Virus record (IMG/VR): IMGVR_UViG_3300020045_006106
Span: 1-33,590 of that record
Reading direction: 5' to 3' (one strand)
Length of the DNA stretch: 33,590 nt
Origin: a virus
Lineage: Duplodnaviria; Caudoviricetes
Shown here: one piece after another, positions 3,416-32,957 of the stretch
Numbering within the stretch: the stretch's first letter is position 1
Layout of the letters: every line of letters begins with the position of its first letter
Made by a program: the position numbers and the translations under genes
Notes under the pieces: generated by a model
Database searches by the model: none
The model's input: the letters and a program-made list of their open reading frames with translations, nothing else
Told to the model about the DNA's origin: nothing

Positions 3416-3840
3416 TGAGCTTCTCCGGTGATGTTGCCGCCCACATCGAGAAATGCCGCAAGCGATTGGCATATACTGCCAAGACAGCTACGCTAGCCGT
3501 GTGTAACGATGCGCGACTAGTTGGCCCAAGCGTTGCCAATCCAGATGCTAACAAGGGCGGGCGGATGCCGGTTGATACAAATAACTTGCGCAACTCTATG
3601 GCGGCGTCAATATCTGGACTTCCATCAGGACAGACTGAAGGCAATGAAAAAAAGACCGGCGATGATGTTGCAGCGATGTTAATCCGCTGGAAGCCTGGTC
3701 AATCGCTATTTTATGCAGGATTTACCGCTAACTACGCTCGCCAAATGGAGTACCGCTACGGATTTATGCGCGGTGCCGTTATGAAGTGGGGCGAGTTAGT
3801 CCGTAAAGCCGCCGAAGAATCAAAGAGGAAAATACCATGA
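3415..3840 (+). CDS. Neck / tail completion protein (HK97 gp10-like)
   Basis: 'PVDTNNLRNS' and 'YARQMEY' motifs; TAATG coupling. Confidence 0.75.
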   Translation: MSFSGDVAAHIEKCRKRLAYTAKTATLAVCNDARLVGPSVANPDANKGGRMPVDTNNLRNSMAASISGLPSGQTEGNEKKTGDDVAAMLIRWKPGQSLFYAGFTANYARQMEYRYGFMRGAVMKWGELVRKAAEESKRKIP

Positions 3841-4424
3841 TCAAAGTTCCCGAAAGTTGCCTCCCGTTGTTGCGCGAGCACCGCACCCATTACACTGGTG
3901 ATTTCGTTGCTGCCTACAATGCTGAATTGCAGGCCACATACGAAGGCATTAAGAACTATCTTCCGAGCGAGGGTGTCATTCTGGACATTGGCGCTGGCAT
4001 GGCCGGTATCGATATCCTGCTAGATCGGCATTACGGTGGTGAGGCAAAGATCACGCTATTGGACAAGCAAGGCAAATCAGAAAAGATCAATGCCGGATTC
4101 CACAAATCTGCAGATACCTTTTCGAACTATCATGACTTTGACTTGGCGATTGAAATGCTTGGCACTAATGGTGTTGAAAATATTCGCACTGTTGATATTG
4201 CTAACGAAAAATTCCCGCGCTCGCCATTTACGGTGGTCATCAGCCTTTTAAGCTGGGGATTCCACTACCCGATCAGCACCTATTCGCCAAGGGTCAAGAA
4301 GGGCGGCATTATCATTGCCGACATTCGCCGCGATACCGATGGAATCAAACAGCTAGCCGAGTATGGCGCCATTACTGTTGTGCATAACGCCAAGAAATAT
4401 CAGCGCGTGGTCGTGCAATGCTAG
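3837..4424 (+). CDS. Class I SAM-dependent methyltransferase-like protein
   Basis: Motif I 'VILDIGAGMAG', acidic end of strand 2 'TLLD', late 'KKGGIII'. Confidence 0.75.
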   Translation: MIKVPESCLPLLREHRTHYTGDFVAAYNAELQATYEGIKNYLPSEGVILDIGAGMAGIDILLDRHYGGEAKITLLDKQGKSEKINAGFHKSADTFSNYHDFDLAIEMLGTNGVENIRTVDIANEKFPRSPFTVVISLLSWGFHYPISTYSPRVKKGGIIIADIRRDTDGIKQLAEYGAITVVHNAKKYQRVVVQC

Positions 4425-5113
4425 TGTTCGTTTGCTTCAAATGGGAGCGAATCAAGACCGGATTTCAATTGCCTGCCGTGTGCAATTACACCGCGCATCA
4501 CGTCAATGTGCTGCGCAACATGCTGGAGCGTCACGTAAAAATACCACACCGGCTGATTTGCGTTACTGATAATCCCGAGTATATCGATCCGAGAATCGAA
4601 ACGGTTGAGCTGTGGGATAAGTGCCGAGATTTGGGTGGGTGCTATAACCGCCTATGGGTATTTAGCGAAGAAGCGCGCGAGCTGTTCGGTGATCGCTTTG
4701 TCTGCATTGATCTTGATTGCGTGATCGTAAACGACTGTACCGATTTATTTACTCGGGAAGATGACTTTATTATCAACTCATACAACCCTTGCGCGCGCAA
4801 CCCAATCGACCAGCATTACAACGGCAGCATGTTTATGGTTACCGCTGGCGCCCGCAGACAGCTGTGGGATGATTTCGACCCTGAGTCATCGCCGGATATA
4901 GTGCAAGCCGACCCAAACACCATAGGCACAGATCAGGCGTGGATTAGACACAAGCTAGGCAAAGGCGAGACAAGATGGGGTAACGCCGATGGAGTCTACG
5001 AGGCGCGCCAGATCAACCACTATTTATTGCCCGATGCCAAGATAATATTTTTCTCTGGTCGCCGTGACCCGAGCGAAAACAAATACCGATGGGTGCAGAG
5101 GCATTGGCTATGA
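4418..5113 (+). CDS. Putative glycosyltransferase (GT-A fold, GT8-like)
   Basis: 'LICVTD', DxD motif 'CIDLDCVI', 'NGSMF', 'TDQAWI', 'IIFFSGRRDP'. Confidence 0.8.
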   Translation: MLVFVCFKWERIKTGFQLPAVCNYTAHHVNVLRNMLERHVKIPHRLICVTDNPEYIDPRIETVELWDKCRDLGGCYNRLWVFSEEARELFGDRFVCIDLDCVIVNDCTDLFTREDDFIINSYNPCARNPIDQHYNGSMFMVTAGARRQLWDDFDPESSPDIVQADPNTIGTDQAWIRHKLGKGETRWGNADGVYEARQINHYLLPDAKIIFFSGRRDPSENKYRWVQRHWL

Positions 5114-5766
5114 TCACGATTGCTTGCGTATTAAAAACCGGTGGATGGAAAAACCGACATATCAACGTCGAGTATCACCCACGCCAAGTGATTTGGCTGC
5201 GTGATCAGGTGGCGCGGCACGTTAAGTGCGATTACCGGTTCGTGTGCTTTTCTGATGTCGAGATTGAAGGTGTAGAGGTGATACCGCTAACCGATAATCT
5301 ACCTGGTTGGTGGAGTAAGCTGGAATTGCTTAAGCGCGATATGGGCAAGGTGTTTTACCTAGACCTAGACACCGTGATCATTGACGACATAACCCACATG
5401 GTTAAATACGATCACAAGTTCTCGGTGTTGCGCAATTTGTCGAGCAAGGCGCCGGGACGAATCGGCTCTGGCATAATGGCGTGGAACGGTGACTATTCGC
5501 ATATCTACCGCAAGTTTATGGAATCGCCAGAAAAGTACATGGCGGAATATACGACTTCAGATCGCTGGGGGGATCAGTCACTAATCCAAGAATTTATGAA
5601 TGGCAAGTTTGAGTTTTTTCAGGATATTTTCCCCGCTCAAATGGGCAGTTATAAGTTTGATTTCGCGCAAGGTAATCCATGGCGCGGAACAAGAATTGTT
5701 ATTTTTCACGGACAACCTAAGCCTTGGGAGACTGCCCACGAATGGGTTCCAAAGTTGCCTTCATAA
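5110..5766 (+). CDS. Putative glycosyltransferase (GT-A fold, GT8-like)
   Basis: 'WWSKLEL', DxD 'YLDLDTVI', 'GDQSLI', 'IFHGQPKPW'; ATG 5110 overlaps upstream TGA. Confidence 0.85.
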   Translation: MITIACVLKTGGWKNRHINVEYHPRQVIWLRDQVARHVKCDYRFVCFSDVEIEGVEVIPLTDNLPGWWSKLELLKRDMGKVFYLDLDTVIIDDITHMVKYDHKFSVLRNLSSKAPGRIGSGIMAWNGDYSHIYRKFMESPEKYMAEYTTSDRWGDQSLIQEFMNGKFEFFQDIFPAQMGSYKFDFAQGNPWRGTRIVIFHGQPKPWETAHEWVPKLPS

Positions 5767-6338
5767 TCGCTACCGGCCCAAGCCTAACGCAATCCGATGT
5801 TGATATGGTGCGCGGCAAAGGTGCGGTTTATGCGGTTAATAACGCCGTGTTCTTGGCGCCTTTCGCTGATGTACATTATGCGTGCGATGAAATTTGGTGG
5901 AAAACTTACTGTCCTGTTAGGCCTGATTGGTTTACTGGGGAGCGGTTGACAATATCGCCATATCATTACCGGTTTGATGCGGTAAAAATACCCTCGGAAT
6001 ACACCGGCACGTTTGGAGATGGATTTGGCCGGTCAGCGGTTCGCACTGGTGGAAATAGTGGATTCCAAGCACTAAACCTTGCCATTATTCGCGGATTCAA
6101 AACTATTTGCCTATTGGGGTTTGATCACCAGCAAACGGACGGAAAGGCGCACTTTCATGGCGATCACCCAAAGGGCATGGGTAACGGCAAAGCCACTGAT
6201 ATATGGATCAGGGCAATGAATAAAGCGGCGGCTAACACATACGGCGCAAAAGTGATAAACTGCACCAGAGAAACCGCATTGACGTGTTTTGACCGTATGC
6301 CATTAGAGGATTTTATTCGTGAATACTGCAATTCTTGA
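5742..6338 (+). CDS. DUF115/Maf/CstII-like Rossmann-fold putative glycosyltransferase
   Basis: 'IIATGPSL', 'AVNN', 'NSGFQALNLA', 'ICLLGFD', 'VINCT' motifs; start taken at ATG 5742 (RBS GGGAG). Confidence 0.65.
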   Translation: MGSKVAFIIATGPSLTQSDVDMVRGKGAVYAVNNAVFLAPFADVHYACDEIWWKTYCPVRPDWFTGERLTISPYHYRFDAVKIPSEYTGTFGDGFGRSAVRTGGNSGFQALNLAIIRGFKTICLLGFDHQQTDGKAHFHGDHPKGMGNGKATDIWIRAMNKAAANTYGAKVINCTRETALTCFDRMPLEDFIREYCNS

Positions 6339-6720
6339 GGCGTTTTTAGAAAAGCTTGAGGAGTTGGGTATTTCACCAGCCTTACCAGTTGCATGGCCGG
6401 GCATTAATTTAGACCCGCCCGATTCTGGAATGTGGCTAGAGGTTTTGTTCTTCCCCAATGAAACGGAAAACGTAGCATGGGGAGCAGATGCGCCAGTCAA
6501 TGCAAAAGGTTTTTTTCAGGTATCAGTTTTTTATCGCCCCGGTATTGGGCAAATTCAGCCATCGGCAATAGCGGATTTAATCATCGCGCATTACCCGAAA
6601 GGGCTAAAGTTTATCGGTGACGTTGGGGTTATCAAAAAGCCTTGGCAGTCGCCAGCAGTAACGGGCAGCGATAGATTGTTTATCCCTGTTTCGATCCCTT
6701 ATAGCGGACTTTTAAAATGA
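6319..6720 (+). CDS. Tail terminator-like protein (DUF4128-like)
   Basis: 'VAWPG..DPP...WLEV', 'GFFQVSVF..PG.G', 'IPVSIPY'; upstream of tail tube. Confidence 0.8.
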   Translation: MNTAILEAFLEKLEELGISPALPVAWPGINLDPPDSGMWLEVLFFPNETENVAWGADAPVNAKGFFQVSVFYRPGIGQIQPSAIADLIIAHYPKGLKFIGDVGVIKKPWQSPAVTGSDRLFIPVSIPYSGLLK

Positions 6721-7253
6721 TTGATTTTTATCAAGACTATATAAAGTCAATTATTGAATATTTCCCTGAAACAGGAGAAATGATATGGAAAAAAAGAACA
6801 AGCGAGCACCATAAATCGCCAAAAGTATTGAATGCGTGGAATTCAAACTTTGCAGGTAAGGTGGTTGGCTCCATTGGGAAAAATGGATATAAAAGCGCAG
6901 CAATAATGAATAAATACAAGGTGCTTGTCCATCATATCGCATGGATATATATGACAGGTGCGTGGCCAGAAAAATATATAGACCATAAAAATGGAGTAAG
7001 AACTGATAACAAATTTGATAATCTTAGACCGGCAAATGAGTCTGAAAACTCATTAAATGCAAAGATAAGATGCGACAATAAAAGCGGACACAAAAATGTT
7101 TTTTGGAATTGTCGAGTTAAAAAGTGGAATGTTAAGTTATCGGTTAACAGAAAACCAATACATATAGGTTATTTTGATGATTTAAGCGCAGCCGCTTTGG
7201 CTGCTGAAAGCGCAAGAGTTACCTATCATAAGGACTTTGCTAGACACAGATAA
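6717..7253 (+). CDS. HNH homing endonuclease with AP2-like C-terminal domain
   Basis: 'YFPETG', 'IDHKNGVRTDNKFDNLR', 'NKSGHKNVFW', 'HIGYFDD..AA.A'; AT-rich relative to flanks. Confidence 0.9.
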   Translation: MIDFYQDYIKSIIEYFPETGEMIWKKRTSEHHKSPKVLNAWNSNFAGKVVGSIGKNGYKSAAIMNKYKVLVHHIAWIYMTGAWPEKYIDHKNGVRTDNKFDNLRPANESENSLNAKIRCDNKSGHKNVFWNCRVKKWNVKLSVNRKPIHIGYFDDLSAAALAAESARVTYHKDFARHR

Positions 7254-21099: not shown

Positions 21100-21602
21100 T
21101 AAGTAAGCCCCTGCTAATTGCGATTGCCGTGTTAGTCACGCTGCTTGGATTGGCCTCGTTTGGCCTTTACAAGCAAGTGCAGGCCAATGGCGCGTTGGCG
21201 TCCAAGTTGAAGCAGCAAAAGGCCAATGTGTTTGCGCACCATGTCGCATGGAAATTTACCGATGGCGTAATGTCATCACAAAGAGAGACTGTTAAGAATG
21301 CAGAAGTTAAAACCGATTTACATGCTGGCAGTGTTGCTGCCGCTGACGATGTTGCAAACAGGTTGCGCGACCAACTCGAAACCTACATTGCAGAATCCGC
21401 CGATGATCGTGCCGGATTTGCCGAGTATCGCAAAGCAGCCGAAGCAAAGCATAGAGTGCTTGCCGACATGTACCGAGAAGCTGACCGCCGCGCGGGAATC
21501 TACGCTGATCAAGCTGACAAAAACAAAATAGCAGGTGATGCGTGCGAGTCTGCTTACGATGAGCTTGTCGGCTGGATTCGCAAAACATACGGCGTAAAAT
21601 AA
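21096..21602 (+). CDS. Inner-membrane spanin (Rz-like, DUF2514-like)
   Basis: N-terminal TM, helical body, 'ADRRAGIYADQAD...AGDACESAYD'. Confidence 0.8.
   Translation: MISKPLLIAIAVLVTLLGLASFGLYKQVQANGALASKLKQQKANVFAHHVAWKFTDGVMSSQRETVKNAEVKTDLHAGSVAAADDVANRLRDQLETYIAESADDRAGFAEYRKAAEAKHRVLADMYREADRRAGIYADQADKNKIAGDACESAYDELVGWIRKTYGVK
21298..21531 (+). CDS. Outer-membrane spanin lipoprotein (Rz1-like), embedded in +1 frame
   Basis: Signal peptide with lipobox-like 'LQTGC', Pro-rich mature part with CLPTC; fully nested in the Rz-like gene. Confidence 0.75.
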   Translation: MQKLKPIYMLAVLLPLTMLQTGCATNSKPTLQNPPMIVPDLPSIAKQPKQSIECLPTCTEKLTAARESTLIKLTKTK

Positions 21603-21726
21603 AACCGTGGATATACGGATCGCCCATCAAAATAACGTGCCAACTTTTAAGCCTTTGATTTAGCTATTAAATTTCAGGCTTAATTTTGGAGTTTTGCTGG
21701 GTAGGCCGTATATTCCGCTGTTAGCC
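21599..21726. repeat. attC-like boundary site (left end of cassette array)
   Basis: Imperfect palindrome AAC-CGTGG-ATATACGG...CCGTATAT-TCCGCT-GTTAGCC with inner AAGCCT...AGGCTT stem; GTTAGCC 21720-21726 is the core site of cassette 1. Confidence 0.65.
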
Positions 21727-21738
21727 AAGGGGGCTTCG

Positions 21739-22341
21739 ATGAAATGTTATCAGTGCGACCGACCTCCTATGTATGAAGTGGGAGAAGCGTGCATTCCCCT
21801 TTGTCTTGAATGTTATTTCAAGTTAATGCAAATTGAGCAGCAGAAATATGAAAATAATGAGCGCATGTTAAATTACCTTCATGACCAAGCTTCTGCAATT
21901 GTGGGAATACCTTCTTTGTTTCCACGCTTTCCGCCTCGCCCTCAACCAGTAATAGTTTCAGGAGCCAAATTGCAAAATATTAATGTTAATAACAGCGTTG
22001 TTGGAACTATTAATACCGGATCTATAGGAACCGTAGATCAATCAATTAGCGCATTGATCCAAACCGGTGAACCTAAACTTGCAGAGGCAATTAAGTCTCT
22101 TTCGGAAGCAATATTACAAAGTGGTGATCTAACTCGGAATCAAAAGAACGAACTTATAGAAAGTTTGAGTGTTCTTTCAAAGGAGGCTGCCACTCCTTTA
22201 GAGCAACGGCAAAATACTGTTGCAGTATCTCTTCTTGAGAAAGCTATTAAGCTAACGAGCCTGGCCAATGACATTACCGACGTGTGTAATAAGTGGTGGC
22301 CGGTTCTTGCTGTAGCATTTGGTGTTTCTCAAAACGGCTAA
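21739..22341 (+). CDS. Cassette 1 gene: 200-aa hypothetical with N-terminal CxxC..CxxC
   Basis: RBS AAGGGGG just after core site; ATG 21739; TAA stop lies inside R'' GGCTAAC. Confidence 0.8.
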   Translation: MKCYQCDRPPMYEVGEACIPLCLECYFKLMQIEQQKYENNERMLNYLHDQASAIVGIPSLFPRFPPRPQPVIVSGAKLQNINVNNSVVGTINTGSIGTVDQSISALIQTGEPKLAEAIKSLSEAILQSGDLTRNQKNELIESLSVLSKEAATPLEQRQNTVAVSLLEKAIKLTSLANDITDVCNKWWPVLAVAFGVSQNG

Positions 22342-22449
22342 CAAAGCAATCAAACGGATGGATTTTAAGTTGCGCTTTTGCCATTCCGCTTCGCTCCATT
22401 TTATGGCAAAAGCGCAACTTAAAAACCACCGTTTATCGCAACGTTATGA
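22336..22449 (+). repeat. attC site 1 (114 bp, canonical geometry)
   Basis: R'' GGCTAAC, 5-nt spacer, L'' AATCAAAC pairing with GTTTATC with one extra base, perfect 22-bp stem 22363-22384/22403-22424, R' GTTATGA. Confidence 0.9.
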
Positions 22450-22656
22450 CTTGCGCATCATCGCTTGAGAATATCGCTCAGTACTTGTGTAGTCGTAACT
22501 ATTCCCGCCCGTCTTGGTCTTCATGTATGAGACTCCACCTACACATTCCCACCCGTTTTCCAGCATCACACAAATATTTGTCGCTAGCTGCCGTTCGCAC
22601 GTATACCAAACAACTTCATATTCATATTTAACTTTTTTCTTTTTAAATGGCCACAT
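22444..22656 (-). CDS. Cassette 2 gene: 70-aa hypothetical
   Basis: RBS GGAG; 'NGWECVGGVS...YSQAMMRK' resembles DUF1737-like small proteins; stop is the TTA of core GTTA. Confidence 0.7.
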   Translation of the reverse strand: MWPFKKKKVKYEYEVVWYTCERQLATNICVMLENGWECVGGVSYMKTKTGGNSYDYTSTERYSQAMMRKS

Positions 22657-22679
22657 AGATCTCACTCCGTATTAATTGG

Positions 22680-22766
22680 TCATAACAAGGCGTTCCATCA
22701 CGGATGCCGCAAGAGCTCGCTCTGTAGTTGTTTTTGGTTCTGGCACCGCTGAACTCGGCGTTATGC
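22680..22766 (+). repeat. attC site 2 (87 bp)
   Basis: TCATAAC-AAGGC-GTTCCATCACGGATGCC...GGCACCGCTGAAC-TCGGC-GTTATGC. Confidence 0.85.
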
Positions 22767-23036
22767 TTGCCTGTAGTCGTAGATGTTTAGTGCGTATTCG
22801 TCAGGGTCGCATCCTCGCTCAAAAGCGCCGACCAAATAATTCGCCCGCTCAATTTTTTCACGAAGCCTGTCATTTTCTGCCGCCATTCCTAAGCACAACG
22901 CTTGCACCTCTTCAAAATGCACGTCGCTGCCGTGAATCCATCCATTAACTTTTTCAAAACTGCAATCAAATGGCAGTGTTATACCATCTACAGTTTCGGC
23001 CAGAGCTTTTCCGCTTTGGTCTATCGTTAGGCTCAT
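22761..23036 (-). CDS. Cassette 3 gene: 91-aa hypothetical phage-type protein
   Basis: RBS AGGA; short coiled segment 'AAENDRLREKIE'; stop is the TTA of core GTTA. Confidence 0.7.
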   Translation of the reverse strand: MSLTIDQSGKALAETVDGITLPFDCSFEKVNGWIHGSDVHFEEVQALCLGMAAENDRLREKIERANYLVGAFERGCDPDEYALNIYDYRQA

Positions 23037-23062
23037 AATTCAGTATCCTATCGTGGTTGTTT

Positions 23063-23149
23063 GCATAACAAGTCATTACAGCACCGACGCGGTTAGAGTC
23101 GGCAAATTAATTACTCTCGGTCAGCGCGCGGCTGAACTCGGCGTTATGA
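23063..23149 (+). repeat. attC site 3 (87 bp)
   Basis: GCATAAC-AAGTC-ATTACAGCACCGACGC...GCGCGGCTGAAC-TCGGC-GTTATGA. Confidence 0.85.
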
Positions 23150-23389
23150 CTATTGCCACTCTGAAAGAAGCTCGCCTAATCTTGCACGCAACTTATCGTC
23201 AAAAGGCATTCCATGTTCAAGCTGAGCTTTTATTGATTCAACTTTCTCAGCAAGCATCTTTTCGCCCCATGAAACACCGCATCTAAAAATATCAGCGGCC
23301 ATACTCGGCTTTCCAATATCATCCCCAAATCCATGAACTATAAGTCCAGTTTCTTCCGTTTTTGTTAAAGGTTTTTTGTGCATACTCAT
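23150..23389 (-). CDS. Cassette 4 gene: 79-aa hypothetical phage-type protein
   Basis: RBS GGAG; stop TAG immediately adjacent to core site. Confidence 0.7.
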   Translation of the reverse strand: MSMHKKPLTKTEETGLIVHGFGDDIGKPSMAADIFRCGVSWGEKMLAEKVESIKAQLEHGMPFDDKLRARLGELLSEWQ

Positions 23390-23414
23390 AGTTTTATCAC
23401 TCCGTATTAATTGG

Positions 23415-23500
23415 TCATAACAAGGCGTTACAGCGCGGATGCTGCAAGAGTTCGCCTTGTAGTTTGTTTAAATTGGGCACCGCTGAACTTGGCGTTACAT
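23415..23500 (+). repeat. attC site 4 (86 bp)
   Basis: TCATAAC-AAGGC-GTTACAGCGCGGATGC...GCACCGCTGAAC-TTGGC-GTTACAT; closely similar to attC site 2. Confidence 0.85.
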
Positions 23501-23662
23501 TCACTTGCCTGCCAGCTCTAACAGGCATTTTAATTTCGCGTTTTCACGTATTAGCGGTAGTGTTTCAGACTCCCATTTTTTGTGAGCTTTGTACTGTTGT
23601 ATGCAAGCTCCGGTAACAAATGACGCATACGCCGCAATAATTAAAAATCCAAAATATTCCAC
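23501..23662 (-). CDS. Cassette 5 gene: 53-aa small membrane protein (not in the ORF track)
   Basis: GTG start after AGGAG; MEYFGFLIIAAYASFVTGACIQQYKAHKKW...LELAGK; TGA adjacent to core site. Confidence 0.65.
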   Translation of the reverse strand: MEYFGFLIIAAYASFVTGACIQQYKAHKKWESETLPLIRENAKLKCLLELAGK

Positions 23663-23692
23663 AATACACTCCTAAATTAGTTCGCTATGTAA

Positions 23693-23720
23693 ATGTAACC
23701 AGTCGCAGCAACTGGACGGA
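23693..23720 (+). repeat. Left arm of a truncated attC site 5
   Basis: ATGTAAC (complement of GTTACAT 23494-23500), 5-nt spacer CAGTC, GCAGCAACTGGACG; no adjacent right arm. Confidence 0.6.
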
Positions 23721-23721
23721 A

Positions 23722-23940
23722 TTAACGCCTAGGCTTCAGGCAGTCTCCGGCCTTTGCGTTGCCGTATTGGCTTAATTCTTCATCCTGATAAACCTCTGCA
23801 TTGATCCAGCGAGTGTATGCGCAGTTTGGAAATATGTGCCAGATTACTGCTGTAACAATCACCCATAAAATACCGCACGCAAGAATGCCAATACAAAGGC
23901 CGCTGATTACAATTGCTAAAGCTAAGATTTCGGTTTGCAT
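23722..23940 (-). CDS. Small membrane protein
   Basis: RBS GAGG; long N-terminal hydrophobic stretch. Confidence 0.6.
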   Translation of the reverse strand: MQTEILALAIVISGLCIGILACGILWVIVTAVIWHIFPNCAYTRWINAEVYQDEELSQYGNAKAGDCLKPRR

Positions 23941-24088: not shown

Positions 24089-24439
24089 TCATTTCAGTAG
24101 CTCATCGTTTTGATAGATATTACCTGCGACAATAAAGTTGCCGCCACGCGCTAAAATTAGCTCGTCACATTCAAAAGAAGCGCTAAACTCAGACCGGTAA
24201 ACCTTTCCATAGACATTAAATATTCCATCTTTCAATATGTCACCTTCAAAAATATTCACACCGTTTCTGTCGGTTAGTCCGGTGAATTGCAGCAACTCAA
24301 GATCAATAAATCCAAAAGTGTGCGTTGAATTATGATCAAGTGATTGGCATCCTGCGATGCTGTTATCAAAATCCAACTGGTACACGTTGTACATTTTTTG
24401 GTGGTATTTATTCCAAGCCCTAAAAAGTATCTCTCTCAT
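24089..24439 (-). CDS. YopX family protein
   Basis: 'MREILFRAW', 'QFTGLTDRNGVNIFEGDIL', 'AGNIYQNDELL'. Confidence 0.9.
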   Translation of the reverse strand: MREILFRAWNKYHQKMYNVYQLDFDNSIAGCQSLDHNSTHTFGFIDLELLQFTGLTDRNGVNIFEGDILKDGIFNVYGKVYRSEFSASFECDELILARGGNFIVAGNIYQNDELLK

Positions 24440-24831
24440 CAACAAAACTCCTTTCCTGTGCCGCTAAAACCTGCGTCGATTTCGGCTTGGTTAAAGTTGC
24501 GGTATTTGTAATCTGGATCAACTAAGCACCGTCCACATGAATCATCGCGCAAGTAGTCCATCATTGAGTCAGCCTCCAGAGCATCGTCAATGCCTTGGTT
24601 GTATGCGTCGATAGCGTCTTGGCACTGGATTTCCCAAAGCGAATAAACTTGATTTTTTGCTTCATTGCTTGATTCCATGTACCAAATACCAACATCAGCA
24701 GTCATTTTGTCATCCAAAAACGCAGCCATGCACAAATCACCAAAACCTTGCGCAACTAAATCCAGCAAATCCGGCACATATCCCGCCTTTGTTTTGTGGA
24801 TCGACTCGCAGAATTCTTTGAAGTAAGACAT
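24439..24831 (-). CDS. Hypothetical protein
   Basis: 130-aa ORF coupled to YopX gene; RBS GAGG. Confidence 0.65.
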   Translation of the reverse strand: MSYFKEFCESIHKTKAGYVPDLLDLVAQGFGDLCMAAFLDDKMTADVGIWYMESSNEAKNQVYSLWEIQCQDAIDAYNQGIDDALEADSMMDYLRDDSCGRCLVDPDYKYRNFNQAEIDAGFSGTGKEFC

Positions 24832-24832
24832 T

Positions 24833-25114
24833 TTAAATTTCCTCTCCGCTAATATTATATTTTTCTAGCCTTTCGATTGCAGAATCAAGTGTTGGGCCGG
24901 TAACCATTCCAAATGGGCCATCATTATCACGGAAAAATTTAAGCTCCTTTAATGCAGCCTCAACATCACAAATCATTTCAACAACAAGTTTTGAATGGCA
25001 GGCATTGAAACCATCCTCAAAAGCAAAAACCTCTTTTTTTGGTCTTTCGGTATGACTCCACTCATCAAGGCATTCATTTTTTACTGATTGTCCTCTTTCA
25101 AATATGGCTGACAT
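24833..25114 (-). CDS. Hypothetical protein
   Basis: Tightly packed ORF; 'AFEDGFNAC' motif common in small phage proteins. Confidence 0.65.
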   Translation of the reverse strand: MSAIFERGQSVKNECLDEWSHTERPKKEVFAFEDGFNACHSKLVVEMICDVEAALKELKFFRDNDGPFGMVTGPTLDSAIERLEKYNISGEEI

Positions 25115-25306
25115 TTAATACCATCCTTTTAGTTGTTGAAATATACGATTAAACGTGTGAGAAGTTAAAACAATATATTGACCCTCAAGTGATTTTTTTA
25201 CAAAGCAATCAACTTCTGATCCGTCAAATTTAACGCCAGTAAACTCAAACCCTTCTTTGTTAGGAAGTGATGACTTTGGTTTTAGCTTTTCAGGTAGTTT
25301 TTTCAT
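25115..25306 (-). CDS. Hypothetical protein
   Basis: RBS GGAG; abuts downstream gene. Confidence 0.6.
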   Translation of the reverse strand: MKKLPEKLKPKSSLPNKEGFEFTGVKFDGSEVDCFVKKSLEGQYIVLTSHTFNRIFQQLKGWY

Positions 25307-25394
25307 TCCAACTTACTCCATCGCTTTATTGATGACCCAATATTACATATTTGAATTGTTAATATGGGTAAGCTATGTGTTAAGTTGAGTTAAG

Positions 25395-25598
25395 TCACTT
25401 AGCAAGCTGCTTGATTATTGGGTATGGATAAACCAACCTAAAACACCAATCGTCGAAAAATTCGCGACCAGAAAATTCTTGAACTATTTTGCTGCCAAAA
25501 ACCCTAAAATATTTACCGCCTAAATATCGAGCTTTAAACAACTTCATTGTAGATCCTTGCCGCACATAGCACTCATCGCCTACCTGTAGTCGTCTCAT
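25395..25598 (-). CDS. Hypothetical protein
   Basis: ATGA-coupled to upstream gene. Confidence 0.55.
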   Translation of the reverse strand: MRRLQVGDECYVRQGSTMKLFKARYLGGKYFRVFGSKIVQEFSGREFFDDWCFRLVYPYPIIKQLAK

Positions 25599-25825
25599 CG
25601 AACTATCCTCTTCTCTGATAATTTTTCAACCCAGCTCTGGGTTACTCCAATTTCGTGAGCAATGGCAGCGCTTTTAAGCCGCCGCGCACGTGTCCTGGTT
25701 GCCTCTCGAAGCTTTGTCAGCTCATCAATTACTCCGCTTAACCTAGCCACGTCCGCAATCAAGCTCTCGCGCTCTTTGAGTAGCGCGGTAGCTCTTTTGT
25801 ATTGTTCGTCTGAGTATCTGGGCAT
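25595..25825 (-). CDS. Small coiled-coil protein with C-terminal HTH-like segment
   Basis: 'KSAAIAHEIGVTQSWVEKL' matches an HTH pattern. Confidence 0.6.
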   Translation of the reverse strand: MPRYSDEQYKRATALLKERESLIADVARLSGVIDELTKLREATRTRARRLKSAAIAHEIGVTQSWVEKLSEKRIVR

Positions 25826-25827
25826 GA

Positions 25828-26811
25828 TTAGTAACTTATTTTTACGTTGCGAACCAGCCCTTTAGCCATAGCAGTAATAACCAGCTTGGCGGTTGCTTGA
25901 TCAACACCAGCGAGCGCAAGGTCTGCCAATATTTCATTGTTGACGCGCTTTTTGTTGGCGGTGTCTTTCTCGCGGCGCGCTGCTTCGGCTGCTTGTGCTG
26001 CTGCCTCGGACGCCACACGTTGACGCTCTGCCTCAATTGCCTGTTGCTTTTCGCGTTCTGCACGTTCCTGTGCTGCTTTGGTGGCGGCTTCAGCGTCTGC
26101 CTTGGCTTTGGCTGCTGCGCGCTCGGCTTCTTGCTGCTGACGCAATGCGGCTGCTTCCGCTTCGGCCTTTTCACGCTTGGCGCGCTCAACTTCGGCGGAC
26201 GCTGCCTGTTCGGCTGCGATACGGGCTGCATCAGCTGCATCCTTGGCGATTTGTTCTTCGCGCTCCTTTTGCTTATGTGCGGCGATCTGAGCATCAATTA
26301 CAGCCTGCTTTTCTGCCTCTTCTTTCTGGCGCAAATGCTCGGCATACATAAACACAGCCAACTCATGATCACGGTCAACCTGCTCCTGCAATTCACGCGC
26401 TGCAATTTCAGCAAGGCGTACGCGCTCGGCTTCGGCTTCATCGGCAATACGCTTTGCTTCGATTGCGGCCTGTTCGGCCTCCCAATCATCAAGAGGTTTG
26501 CGAACCTCATCGCGCCATGCGTCGAGCGTGTCTTTCATTGCTTTACGGCTGGCGTCAATCTTCTTGGGGATTTCCTTTGCCTCATCGGCCAATGCCTTGC
26601 CCAATGCTTCAAGTGCGCTCTTTGACTGGGAAACCTTATAGGCCATTGACGCAATTGCCTCGCGGCCTTTCTTGGTTGTAAGGTCTGGCTTGAATGCGTC
26701 AATCTCTGCGCGAACATGCGCAAGGTATGGATCAAGACCTTTTACGGCAGTAAATACCGCCATTGCTTTATCTCGCGGCGGTACATGCGCTAATTCTTTA
26801 CTTTCGCTCAT
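25828..26811 (-). CDS. Ala/Glu-rich coiled-coil phage protein (often annotated TolA-like)
   Basis: 'DLTTKKGREAIASMAYKVSQSK', 'LRDEVRKPL'-like 'WRDEVRKPLDDWE', C-terminal 'VKISY'. Confidence 0.8.
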   Translation of the reverse strand: MSESKELAHVPPRDKAMAVFTAVKGLDPYLAHVRAEIDAFKPDLTTKKGREAIASMAYKVSQSKSALEALGKALADEAKEIPKKIDASRKAMKDTLDAWRDEVRKPLDDWEAEQAAIEAKRIADEAEAERVRLAEIAARELQEQVDRDHELAVFMYAEHLRQKEEAEKQAVIDAQIAAHKQKEREEQIAKDAADAARIAAEQAASAEVERAKREKAEAEAAALRQQQEAERAAAKAKADAEAATKAAQERAEREKQQAIEAERQRVASEAAAQAAEAARREKDTANKKRVNNEILADLALAGVDQATAKLVITAMAKGLVRNVKISY

Positions 26812-26812
26812 C

Positions 26813-27460
26813 TCATTTGCTCCTTAGCTTGGTTTCGTATTCGCATACAAGGGTGTTAAATTCGAGCAGATCCTTTTCAAGCTCTGCGATGTAATTATCA
26901 TCTCGCATTACGCGAATAACGGTTAAATCTTTGCCGATCTTTACCAAGGCTGGGCAGTACAGAATGAAGTCGCACCACTTTCGGCCAGTGATCCAAAGCC
27001 CGCCTTGCACTTGATCCATGCAGTCGGCAATATCGCCAGAAAGTAGAATTGATGAGAGTTTTGTGGGTGACAGAAAGCACTTAATTTCTATTTGCCCATC
27101 ATCATCGACAAGGCCATCCACCGAAGCGCCAAAAAGCCCGTCCTCTGTTTTTGCTAATCCAGCCTGCTCAACCAACACGCCTTTGCGTTCTTCATAATCA
27201 AGGCGCGCTTGCGGCTCTAATTCATTGCCTCTGCGAGCTTGCCATGGTGTGAATTCAGGATCATCAAGTAAGCTGCCGGTGATGCGCTCATAAGCCAGTT
27301 TAAAAGCGTAGTCCCGCGCATCTTTAAGGAATTGCCCAGCGTTTTTGCCAGACTTATATTTTCCTCGGCATTCAGTGAATTTTGAGCCTGTCGCAGCGCC
27401 ACAACGGTCAAGAAACCATTTTTCGCTGCCTTGTGGTGAATCGTAATAAATGCAGCTCAT
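26813..27460 (-). CDS. YqaJ / lambda-type exonuclease
   Basis: 'QGSEKW..RCG..TGS', 'RGNELEP.AR', 'GASVDGLV', 'EIKC', 'QVQGGLW'. Confidence 0.92.
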   Translation of the reverse strand: MSCIYYDSPQGSEKWFLDRCGAATGSKFTECRGKYKSGKNAGQFLKDARDYAFKLAYERITGSLLDDPEFTPWQARRGNELEPQARLDYEERKGVLVEQAGLAKTEDGLFGASVDGLVDDDGQIEIKCFLSPTKLSSILLSGDIADCMDQVQGGLWITGRKWCDFILYCPALVKIGKDLTVIRVMRDDNYIAELEKDLLEFNTLVCEYETKLRSK

Positions 27461-28383
27461 TTAGCCACCTCGGCAAATTTTTTCAGTAAGCCCATTGCGC
27501 CAGCGAATCTGGCAAGCGGCAATTCTGATAATGAAGTTATGGAAATCTTTTTGTGCGCACAGAACTGCTCCTCTGTTACACCAGCCATTTCAATCGCTAA
27601 TTTAAGCTGCGCGACCTCTTCATCGCCAACCAATTTAATTGAGTTTTTAGGGGTAATGTCGCGCTCTTGTCGCGGCAATTCCTCGCTGCCTTCGTACTCA
27701 TTAACTACAGCAATAGCTCTGTCAAGGCGATCATCACGATCAGTTTTAGGCCATTGCTTGCTGGCGCGCTTGATCATTGCCTTTTTGACCATCTCATCAA
27801 ACCACGCATCCCAAACTGTCTTTGTCTTGGCTGCATTCTTTACCTTGGTAATATCATCCATCGCCATGAAATCAACCAAGTAATCGCCTTGGTGAGTTTT
27901 GGCAACGCAATAGCAGCCAACGGTGGCGCCTCGATCCTTGAATGGATTCATCTTGTGAGTTGGTGGAGTGCAAACGCCAAGGTATTCAAATTCATCGCTG
28001 GCTTTAACGATTTCCGCTTTTGCCCAAAGTATTGAGCCGCTATCAGTGGCAATCTTAAGCAGTCCTTTAAACGACACGCGCAACATGCACTCTTGCATCC
28101 AGACTTCTTTTCCGGTGTGGTCTTTTTGCTTAACGGATTCCGGCACCAGATACGCATAGCCAAGTGCAGGGTTTAGCGTCAATCCTACAGCAGCGACATT
28201 GATAACCGCATTCTGTACGGTGATAGGAACGCACTGGCTAAGTTTTTCGTTTTTCTGAATAGCCTGAATAGCAAACTGACTTTCCTCTGCCCACGTAACA
28301 AGCTGGGCGCGATTGGCGATCTGGTTAAACTTATCAGCTGACTGGTTAATCACGTCAGCCCACGTCATTAATTGATTTGTCAT
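27457..28383 (-). CDS. recT: RecT family single-strand annealing protein
   Basis: 'GLTLNPALGYAYLVP', 'SFKGL', 'W..WFDEMVKKAMIKRASKQWP'; adjacent to exonuclease. Confidence 0.9.
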   Translation of the reverse strand: MTNQLMTWADVINQSADKFNQIANRAQLVTWAEESQFAIQAIQKNEKLSQCVPITVQNAVINVAAVGLTLNPALGYAYLVPESVKQKDHTGKEVWMQECMLRVSFKGLLKIATDSGSILWAKAEIVKASDEFEYLGVCTPPTHKMNPFKDRGATVGCYCVAKTHQGDYLVDFMAMDDITKVKNAAKTKTVWDAWFDEMVKKAMIKRASKQWPKTDRDDRLDRAIAVVNEYEGSEELPRQERDITPKNSIKLVGDEEVAQLKLAIEMAGVTEEQFCAHKKISITSLSELPLARFAGAMGLLKKFAEVAK

Positions 28384-28409
28384 TATTCATTCCACCTCTT
28401 TGTGCCGCA

Positions 28410-28718
28410 CTAGGCGGCCTTATTGTATTCTGATTCAAAAACATCAAACCCATCGTTTGTTAGATATTCAATAACAAAAGAGCCGTTTTCTTGCTTTATT
28501 GCTCTAACCTCATAATGAATTGAGCCATCTTTGTTAACCAAAAAATATCCTTGCACGCCTTTAACTCTGGTTGCCTTTGGCTCGTACAATCCGCCATTGT
28601 TGGATGAGAAATTCATGCAACGCAAAGCGTGATCAAGCGTAGGCTGTACGTTAGATCCGCCAACCCATTGCGTCCCTTTAACTTTTCTTAGAGCTGATTC
28701 TATTCTACAGTTTGCCAT
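28410..28718 (-). CDS. Hypothetical protein, first gene of leftward operon
   Basis: ORF downstream of leftward promoter; start ATG 28718 or TTG 28724. Confidence 0.6.
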   Translation of the reverse strand: MANCRIESALRKVKGTQWVGGSNVQPTLDHALRCMNFSSNNGGLYEPKATRVKGVQGYFLVNKDGSIHYEVRAIKQENGSFVIEYLTNDGFDVFESEYNKAA

Positions 28719-28757
28719 CTTCAACCCCCTTAATCCCGCCCCATGCGGTATGTGCTC

Positions 28758-28786
28758 ACTATAGCGCTAGCACGTTAGCGCGTCAA
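28758..28786 (-). promoter_or_regulatory. Leftward sigma70-type promoter
   Basis: -35 TTGACG (28786-28781), 17-bp spacer, -10 TATAGT (28763-28758). Confidence 0.75.
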
Positions 28787-28789
28787 CAG

Positions 28790-28818
28790 TTGACACCATA
28801 AATATTTGCGCCTATTAT
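28790..28818 (+). promoter_or_regulatory. Rightward sigma70-type promoter
   Basis: -35 TTGACA (28790-28795), 17-bp spacer, -10 TATTAT (28813-28818). Confidence 0.8.
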
Positions 28819-31865: not shown

Positions 31866-32073
31866 CGTGCCCAAGCCGAGTTTTCGCCCGAGAACGCAGG
31901 CTGGTAAGCACAACCATTAGCCGAAAGGCCGTGTCTGTGACAAGCACGTAAAACATATGGGGTAAACAGAGCGCTTTTCGGAGTTGGCCTTGTTTACCGA
32001 ACAATGGCTAAAACCTTTTTGCCAGTACCCCACGGTATTGTCACCAAGGCCAACCCCAAAAGGCGCTTTTTTT
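31866..32073 (+). ncRNA. Putative structured leader / antisense-type regulatory RNA ending in terminator-like stem
   Basis: Several hairpins, long stem 31970-31992/32045-32067 followed by T7, alternative complementary boxes. Confidence 0.5.
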
Positions 32074-32229
32074 ATGCCCGCTAAATACCCATACAAATCC
32101 CCCGAGCAGTTCAAACGCTGCGCAGAATTTCAATCCAAGGCCGATAAGGCTGCTAAAAATATAGCTCATGCTGCTAACAAGCCGCGTGCAGTTAATCAAT
32201 TCCTGAAGCTTCTGTATTTGAGCATTTAA
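32074..32229 (+). CDS. Possible 51-aa basic protein
   Basis: ATG right after the T-run, ends 2 nt before the initiator gene; weak RBS. Confidence 0.35.
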   Translation: MPAKYPYKSPEQFKRCAEFQSKADKAAKNIAHAANKPRAVNQFLKLLYLSI

Positions 32230-32231
32230 GT

Positions 32232-32957
32232 ATGCACTATTACCAGTTCAATATTTCGACTTGGATACTCCACACCAGCCACTTAACGGTTGAGGAAGAG
32301 TGCGTTTACAGGCGTCTAATTGACTTCTACTACGACACGGAAAAGCCAATACCTAAAGAAACCAAGTCGGTTATCCGTAGGTTACGGTTGGTTAATTACG
32401 AACACATTGTTGAACAGATTTTAAGTGAATTCTTTCACCTTGAGAATGATGGATGGCATAACAATAGGGCTGATATTGAGATAGCGGACTATCAATCAAA
32501 GGCCGATAAGGCTAGAGAAAATGGTAGAAAAGGAGGCAGGCCAAAGAAGGAATCAGCAGAAGAAACCAAGCCGGTTATTTTAGCTAACCAAGAAGAAACC
32601 GGATTGAAAGCTAACTATGAACTATCAACTATTAACGATGAACTAGATAAAAACATTCTTGTTCCTTCGGAACGTGAGCGAGTACCGGCAAAAGAAATCA
32701 TTGAACTGTTCAACAATGTTTTTACTGAATTGCCAGAGGTTAGGCTGATCAGCGAGAAACGCCTCCAGTCGGTTAGATCGAGATGGAAGGAAACTGAAAA
32801 ACTGAGAAGCATTGACCAATGGGAAAAGTTCTTTATCTGGATCAAGCAATCAGATTTTTTAATGGGCAGGGACAAAGCAGAATTTAAGCTGTCTTTCGAC
32901 TGGATATTCAAGGCGGCAAACTTTGCCAAGATTTACGAGGGGAACTACCACAAATGA
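32232..32957 (+). CDS. Replication initiator (YdaU/DUF1376 family)
   Basis: 'MHYYQFNI...T.HLT..E...YRRLID.YY..E.P', 'NGRKGGRP', C-terminal 'FDWIFK..NF.KI.EGNY'. Confidence 0.9.
   Translation: MHYYQFNISTWILHTSHLTVEEECVYRRLIDFYYDTEKPIPKETKSVIRRLRLVNYEHIVEQILSEFFHLENDGWHNNRADIEIADYQSKADKARENGRKGGRPKKESAEETKPVILANQEETGLKANYELSTINDELDKNILVPSERERVPAKEIIELFNNVFTELPEVRLISEKRLQSVRSRWKETEKLRSIDQWEKFFIWIKQSDFLMGRDKAEFKLSFDWIFKAANFAKIYEGNYHK
32556..32650 (+). repeat. Iteron-like repeats, candidate replication origin
   Basis: AAGAAACCAAG(C/T)CGGTTAT at 32560 and 32356; repeated AGAAGAAACC, GCTAAC and AACTA units in the initiator linker. Confidence 0.55.

Follow-up and report, generated by a model that had tools for sequence, protein, structure and literature searches.

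The 33,590-nt virus record IMGVR_UViG_3300020045_006106 (the window, meaning the entire stretch of DNA analysed, which is the whole record at a completeness of ~52%) carries an array of integron cassettes in which four out of five genes are inverted relative to their own attC sites. The attC sites are real and share one polarity, the four genes are antisense to them, cassettes run from core to core, the docking site from which the array starts is variably filled in related phages, and one cassette is shared with a host-type array. From these observations we infer a phage cassette class that is probably recombined by the integron integrase (IntI) of the host and read from the early promoter of the phage. 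The array is a real variant of the phage-borne integron cassette arrays, integron-like but with neither an integrase nor a Pc of its own.

A cassette array between the late and early genes of a phage

The window reads rightward through head, tail and lysis genes, the last being an Rz-like gene that ends at 21602. The leftward early region spans 28724 down to 23722, and replication genes (O-like, DnaB), again rightward, close the contig. The array sits at the junction of the rightward late and leftward early regions, flanked by the Rz-like gene on one side and by early genes on the other. Its features, and those of the early operon, are as follows.

21600..21726, + strand: attI-related docking site that 5 related phage contigs also conserve; G|TT crossover at 21720/21721
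21739..22341, + strand: cassette 1 ORF, 200 aa, sense, host-type cassette; core-to-core copy in a contig of run X1
22336..22449, + strand: attC s1, 114 nt, of the host chromosomal type; shares 92% identity with an attC from Cellvibrio sp. OA-2007
22444..22656, - strand: cassette 2 ORF, 70 aa from ATG (73 from GTG at 22665), antisense; stop is the TTA of the s1 core
22680..22766, + strand: attC s2, 87 nt, phage subtype; covariance model 54.3 bits, pfold 0.003
22761..23036, - strand: cassette 3 ORF, 91 aa, antisense, N-terminal 63 aa conserved; stop is the TTA of the s2 core
23063..23149, + strand: attC s3, 87 nt, phage subtype; covariance model 67.9 bits, pfold 0.023
23150..23389, - strand: cassette 4 ORF, 79 aa, antisense; stop abuts the 7-nt s3 core
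23415..23500, + strand: attC s4, 86 nt, phage subtype; covariance model 65.7 bits, pfold 5e-5
23501..23662, - strand: cassette 5 ORF, 53 aa, antisense; stop abuts the 7-nt s4 core
23693..23721, + strand: s5, 5' half of an attC (R'', L'') with the 3' half absent; left-arm score 13 bits
23722..23940, - strand: backbone gene that ends the leftward operon; the TTA of its stop (23722-23724) closes the array on the right
24089..28724, - strand: leftward early genes, YopX-like, phrog_1376, YqaJ exonuclease and RecT (PHROGs/Pfam matches), with gaps of -4 to 88 nt
28758..28786, - strand: sigma-70-like promoter match, 10/12, a match to consensus only

With four full attC sites in 1.2 kb and no integrase found in the contig, the array is a CALIN, a cluster of attC sites without integrase. 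It is not a complete integron, having neither intI beside it nor a Pc match in a contig that is ~52% complete. At all five junctions of the window R' and the R'' that follows it are reverse complements in 7/7 positions, as expected for cassettes integrated at G|TT, and the cassettes are TT-to-G units whose circles restore a complementary R''/R' pair (5/5 junctions). Most integron cassette genes point towards their own attC. By this measure of a typical cassette the array is mixed, with one sense gene pointing to its attC (cassette 1) and four antisense genes that do not (cassettes 2-5).

Elsewhere in the window, two glycosyltransferase-like genes and one sialyltransferase-like gene lie amid neck and tail genes (4418-6338), possibly serving glycosylation of the virion or of the host surface, and an HNH endonuclease lies between the tail terminator and major tail genes (6717-7253). 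Promoter matches stand back to back at 28758-28818 (10/12 leftward and 11/12 rightward), where PHROGs and Pfam recognised no adjacent repressor-like gene. A 35-nt inverted repeat (31963-32074; 80% complementary, spaced by 42 nt) is found upstream of the O-like gene, and direct repeats within that gene (32122-32578) may mark a replication origin.

Polarity of the attC sites

On the + strand s1-s4 show R'' (RYYYAAC) and R' (GTTRRRY) cores together with L'' and L' boxes, with one extra base in L'' and L boxes at 6-7 of 7. A weight matrix built solely from 41 bacterial attC sites scores s1-s4 at +18 to +29 bits per arm with the + strand as top, and at -2 to -20 bits with the - strand as top. The five best left-arm matches of this matrix in the window are s1-s5. 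The bacterial sites behind the matrix are oriented away from intI and belong to sense genes, so its orientation is the usual one. The same detector found sites at three out of four host intI loci, all oriented away from intI, and none at the fourth. A covariance model made from 55 phage sites, with the window left out, gave four matches in the whole window, all on the + strand with E values of 8e-15 to 3e-10. The initial annotation hinged on the + strand being the top strand of the attC sites, and both models bear this out and rule out the reverse polarity. Two weak attC-like candidates at 3726-3784 and 25228-25395 gave no covariance-model match and are taken as chance.

The same annotation read cassettes 2-5 as bounded by attC cores. 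The sites s1-s4 are full, whereas the attC of cassette 5 is a 5' half only, its right arm not found by the weight matrix. The first 27 nt of s5 match an intact site in another phage array (L047), and the related phage L052 retains an intact last attC that ends at the same backbone point. The sequence at s5 suggests that its 3' half was deleted across a TTA micro-homology. A damaged last site is seen in about 6/25 arrays with enough sequence behind it, as judged by eye.

Cassette genes

The four - strand ORFs of 53-91 aa named in the initial annotation agree with the sequence and the ORF list in every coordinate. Their stops likewise lie where described, on the TTA of GTTA at 22444 and 22761 and directly abutting the core at 23150 and 23501, and the ribosome sites that had been placed just within R'' are found there as GGAG/AGGA, 11-19 nt inside. 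The leaders of these genes measure 20-35 nt with the ribosome site, leaving no room for a promoter. As the annotation had proposed, they continue the leftward operon in direction, with gaps of 59-148 nt; that they are also read through with it we infer.

Scored against codon use in the phage's own genes, cassettes 2-5 reach +1.4, +15.5, +23.0 and +12.4 bits. The five alternative ORFs on the + strand score -21, -13, -15, +9.8 and -5 bits, the +9.8 belonging to the ORF at 23053-23286, and four of the five cross an attC site. Codon scores, attC overlap and the ribosome sites and homologues on the - strand lead us to reject the + strand ORFs as genes. The outcome that would have told against the initial annotation, translation of the + strand, is thus not borne out, and codon use and homologues favour the - strand ORFs as the predicted translated genes.

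In searches of Pfam, PHROGs and PADLOC the only match above cut-off for any of cassettes 1-5 was phrog_36891 (function unknown) for cassette 4 (E 6e-5), and Atlas yielded leads only. Codon support is weak for cassette 2, at 1.4 bits, and its protein has one independent homologue of 70 aa at 91% identity. A Pfam match to DUF1737 (E 0.036) lies below cut-off and the nearest Atlas clusters are viral DUF1737 clusters (score 0.89), so that a DUF1737-like protein is a lead only. Cassette 3 has 33 homologues and its changes are biased to third codon positions in 5/5 DNA comparisons. Cassette 5 has one independent homologue of 53 aa at 87% identity.

The initial annotation had suggested that homologues be examined for flanking inverted attC sites. 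Among 13 loci of cassette 3 homologues, judged by eye, five are preceded by an inverted site that is attC-like but of a different type (two of these loci are identical and one is cut by a contig end) and eight are plain genes. Cassette 4 has three N-terminal homologues, and all three of the viral ones are longer, plain genes without attC (0/3). Both families occur as plain genes and as cassettes.

A class of antisense cassettes in related phages

Orientation was counted by a strict rule in which the ORF must fill >=70% of the cassette, for cassettes of 100-800 nt with 7/7 complementarity only and one locus per array. Four loci with host-type or other arrays were left out (L028, L034, L054, L058) and seven loci from Cellvibrio-genus bins were added, four of them phage by PHROGs and three assumed to be so (L287, L289, L290). 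Among 109 cassettes in related phage arrays, 86 are antisense, 11 both, 12 neither and none sense. Host arrays, by comparison, hold 33 sense, 21 neither and 2 antisense cassettes (n=56), where many of the 'neither' rows stem from one frameshift-rich assembly; decisive cases are sense in 33/35.

A survey of the motif given in the initial annotation returned 88 viral and 123 genome loci, and those with full attC sites (26 of the viral and 13 of the genome loci) proved to be phage arrays or mostly Cellvibrionaceae arrays. In this set, by the longest ORF, 88/96 viral cassettes are antisense and 24/33 bacterial cassettes sense, and R' and R'' are 7/7 complementary in 82/96 viral cassettes. The TTA of the core is the stop codon in 56/97 phage antisense cassettes. 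Host sense cassettes mirror this arrangement by stopping on the TAA of R'' in 17/33.

The phage sites also form a subtype of their own, combining the arms of the host's attC with an unstructured middle. A length of 83-89 nt is found in 105/137 phage sites against 1/41 bacterial sites, a measure that cannot define the subtype alone because a loose family-wide pattern search mostly returned short attC sites of other genera. With 86/109 against 2/56 cassettes antisense and an attC subtype of its own, the phage-adapted cassette class with genes antisense to attC put forward in the initial annotation is upheld.

Phage arrays reach 13 sites. One contig holds two arrays in opposite directions, and the cassettes scored in each are antisense. 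The phage contigs L217 and L236 each carry two arrays; in L236 one follows an Rz-like gene and the other, which has a docking-like site of its own, precedes a Gam-like gene within the early region. Two larger antisense cassettes, of 236 aa each, occur in L017 and L073, and in their sequence motifs the proteins resemble DNA methyltransferases, as in the phage cassettes of Qi 2023.

Homologous cassettes in different phages have a neighbouring site that is <80% identical in 8/8 pairs. The attC 5' of the gene travels with it in 5/8 pairs (5/6 without the double-length cassette), at an identity of 0.54-0.96 that is often below the 84-92% of the gene itself. As the 5' attC accompanies its gene in only 5/8 pairs, some other process must reshuffle the sites as well. 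The idea of a shuffleable module fits the class, with different neighbours in all eight pairs, and fits less well the cassettes 2-5 of the window, where s5 is broken and s4 has a pfold of 5e-5.

Folding and covariation of the sites

The bottom strand of s1 folds at -35.1 kcal/mol (z -9.6) with a pfold of 0.39. For s2, s3 and s4 the lowest-energy structure is not attC-shaped (z 0.8, -0.5 and -2.0), and by class the median pfold is 0.019 for the phage subtype versus 0.18 for host sites. The values for s2-s4 (0.003, 0.023 and 5e-5) fall within the range of chromosomal sites given in the accessible text of Loot 2017 (PMC5371416), which also describes no excision between two sites with pfold 3e-3 and 8e-6.

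When the 55 phage sites are aligned, 98% of cells are paired, against 27-42% in slid controls, and compensatory change is seen in 10/15 pairs. This covariation is partly built in by a site filter that demanded L-box pairing, and four covarying pairs in the inner stem lie outside the filter. Folding of the coding-strand RNA is weaker in the phage subtype, with a median of -21.7 versus -53.9 kcal/mol (-0.26 versus -0.43 per nt). A terminator-like hairpin lies on the - strand at 23715-23699; such matches are not above chance (11 versus 10.5).

An attI-related docking site and a link to Cellvibrio

Three features go beyond the initial annotation, namely an attI-related docking site, a host link through cassette 1 and the mixed orientation of the array. 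The docking site carries the motif ATATACGG at about 21611 with an inverted copy adjoining the core. It has the CTG|TTA core and the AAATATACGGC motif in common with the host attI beside intI, but carries AAATATACGGC twice, inverted, whereas the host attI is not a long inverted repeat. Because the motif is present twice and inverted the docking site can fold, and its predicted folding is better than that of shuffles (z -3.3/-4.2). A host-type L box is absent, and with attC only the core is held in common. The docking site of one phage contig (G202:C54) is nearly identical to the host attI. Across 21600-21726 there is no sigma-70-like match at >=9/12 and so no Pc match; the antisense cassette genes would in any case be unable to use a Pc.

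Five related contigs conserve the docking site up to CTG|TTA, and each has a different first cassette. At the other end of the array, in the window and in L052 alike, the stop codon of the last early backbone gene is the TTA that closes the array. The C-terminus of the 23722 gene matches L052 in 12/13 aa, and the stop in L052 is there the TTA of the last core. A backbone relative, L216, has no array at the equivalent position. In this contig Rz is followed by a low-complexity Gly/Asn/Gln-rich ORF in place of the cassette array (L216:8760-9500).

The likeness of the attC sites and the genome bins make Cellvibrio the likely host. A 3200-nt contig from run X1 contains cassette 1 with two substitutions and one gap, its ends falling exactly at 21720 and 22446, and the cassette is preceded by a host-type attC end and followed by two more s1-like sites. 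In the reverse sense, a 1190-nt contig of the Cellvibrio sp. OA-2007 assembly has, next to two host-type sites and one sense cassette, an antisense cassette whose attC is of the phage subtype (L238:759-1103, G001:C72). This contig could be chromosomal or derive from a prophage. The cassette 1 protein had no real match in 64 Cellvibrio-genus genomes, and runs X1-X4 gave no cover over cassettes 2-5. Top-scoring model matches occur in 8/64 of these genomes, six to the phage subtype and two to host-type sites of 113-114 nt, and the four contigs with such matches that were checked are all phage. In GenBank phages the sole match is an s1-like site in Shewanella phage M16-3.

IntI scores above the TIGR02249 cut-off in 7/9 genomes searched, and upstream of intI in 2/7 loci lies what we take to be a LexA-like box. 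One host array (L239-L241, G002) repeats many times a ~375-nt cassette without a clear ORF, which may be a non-coding cassette or reflect assembly frameshifts.

Discussion

Our results point to a model in which host IntI, acting in trans, would insert and remove cassettes at the attI-like docking site of the phage. With their genes antisense to attC, the cassettes would therefore be read from the leftward early promoter, and an early transcript from the promoter match at 28786 would pass through the 59-148 nt gaps and along the attC bottom strands. The short, weakly folding attC subtype may represent an adaptation to being transcribed through. The docking site, remote from the early promoter, would be the point of entry for new cassettes, and old cassettes on the promoter side would become fixed upon decay of their attC, as may have happened to cassette 5. 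An origin near the O-like gene at 32232 would place the bottom strands on the lagging-strand template, favouring recombination; that this placement raises recombination is described in the accessible text of Loot 2017 (PMC5371416).

Several other explanations were weighed against host IntI. The sites may derive from attC while most of the gene shuffling is done by RecT/exonuclease recombination between repeated arms and leaders, in the manner of the repeated early cassettes of T4-type phages. RecT and YqaJ are encoded in the same operon, s2 and s4 are 88% identical over 73 nt that include the ribosome-site leader, attC bodies are mosaic relative to their genes, s5 resembles a deletion across TTA micro-homology and pfold is low. 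We nevertheless consider this unlikely given junctions that fall precisely on G|TT, where R' and R'' are 7/7 complementary in 82/96 cassettes, a docking site that is attC-like in its core only and takes different first cassettes, and stems that covary while the sequence diverges to ~60% identity, which favours selection on shape over identity.

A relic array, in which host integron cassettes were gained in either orientation, those suited to early transcription were kept and all are now immobile, is more doubtful still. It would accommodate the host-type cassette 1, the broken s5 with similar damage in about 6/25 arrays, and the few antisense cassettes of host arrays (2/56, and that in L238). 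It would not be expected to yield antisense cassettes with an attC subtype of their own and genes of phage type that have plain phage genes as homologues, nor arrays of up to 13 sites with different neighbours in 8/8 shared pairs. IntI reportedly inserts cassettes in a single orientation; a flip of the gene on entry would therefore flip its attC too, which is not seen.

We regard as similarly improbable the action on these sites of a tyrosine recombinase other than IntI (Xer-like), whether encoded by the phage or by the host. The docking site is an inverted repeat with an L box unlike that of the host attI and, because the window is only ~52% complete, a phage recombinase may be encoded outside it; an ordinary phage integrase is carried by one related bin contig. 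Against this, PF00589 (tyrosine recombinase) matches neither the window nor any of 10 related virus records, three of which are nearly complete (>=90%), and the attC arms and attI motif are those of the host's own integron. A reading of the cassettes as ordinary, with the + strand ORFs as their true genes, is highly improbable, since the +9.8 bits of the ORF at 23053-23286 on the codon model stand against -5 to -21 bits for the other four, four of the five traverse an attC site and the - strand ORFs have ribosome sites, homologues of equal length and changes biased to third codon positions.

Among known systems, the array resembles the sedentary chromosomal integrons of Cellvibrio (IntI, attI and attC sites of 110-140 nt) in its attC arms, G|TT boundaries, a related attI motif and one cassette. 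The Cellvibrio integrons differ in having sense genes, an adjoining intI and long hairpin attC sites, whereas the phage array has no intI and genes directed towards attI. Vibrio integrons contain single antisense cassettes with their own promoter, for example toxin-antitoxin cassettes, as a minority. The phage cassettes, by contrast, have 20-35 nt leaders too short for a promoter and make up whole arrays. A departure in orientation within an integron is also known from the inverted integron-integrase group (Treponema and others), where, in the text available for Cury 2016 (PMC4889954), intI is flipped relative to attC. In the window, where intI is absent, it is instead each antisense gene that is turned round with respect to its attC.

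The closest precedents are the 17 phage CALINs described in the accessible parts of Qi 2023 (PMC9892861), which are likewise arrays of attC sites and small genes in phage genomes without intI, and IntI1 recombined 5/6 tested sites. Those arrays are called typical and same-direction there, with odd orientations ascribed to mosaicism. The class to which the window belongs differs, as far as that text goes, in being antisense by rule, in using a separate attC subtype and in starting from a docking site related to attI. The CALINs of TJE1 and M16-3 are sense, as checked here. In Polaribacter phage P12002L, the bottom strand of attC1 (L321:30003-30059) coincides with the coding strand of the flanking methyltransferase genes, as in the window; this attC1 was the single tested site that did not recombine, and the accessible parts of Qi 2023 (PMC9892861) name no such class. 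A 2026 review (PMC13492144), in its available text, cites Qi alone on phage CALINs. Our literature search, with subscription papers mostly outside its scope, found phage CALINs and no antisense phage cassette class.

In a wider reading that we put forward tentatively, these phages may hold their own branch of the integron system, with backward cassettes made from ordinary phage early genes, an attC subtype of their own, a captured attI and IntI-dependent shuffling, and with cassettes traded in both directions with the chromosomal array. If so, phage genomes would be a place where cassettes are made and where old ones are re-fixed through loss of attC. The occurrence of the same gene family with and without attC gives a handle on the origin of cassettes. 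As a cultured host genus has matching IntI and attI, the main step can be tested directly. Integrons are usually seen as bacterial platforms whose cassettes run one way and are read from Pc. This group of phages appears to vary its early genes through mirrored integron sites while not encoding the enzyme itself. Phage mosaicism would then have a site-specific route, and phages and chromosomal integrons would be linked by a channel that runs both ways.
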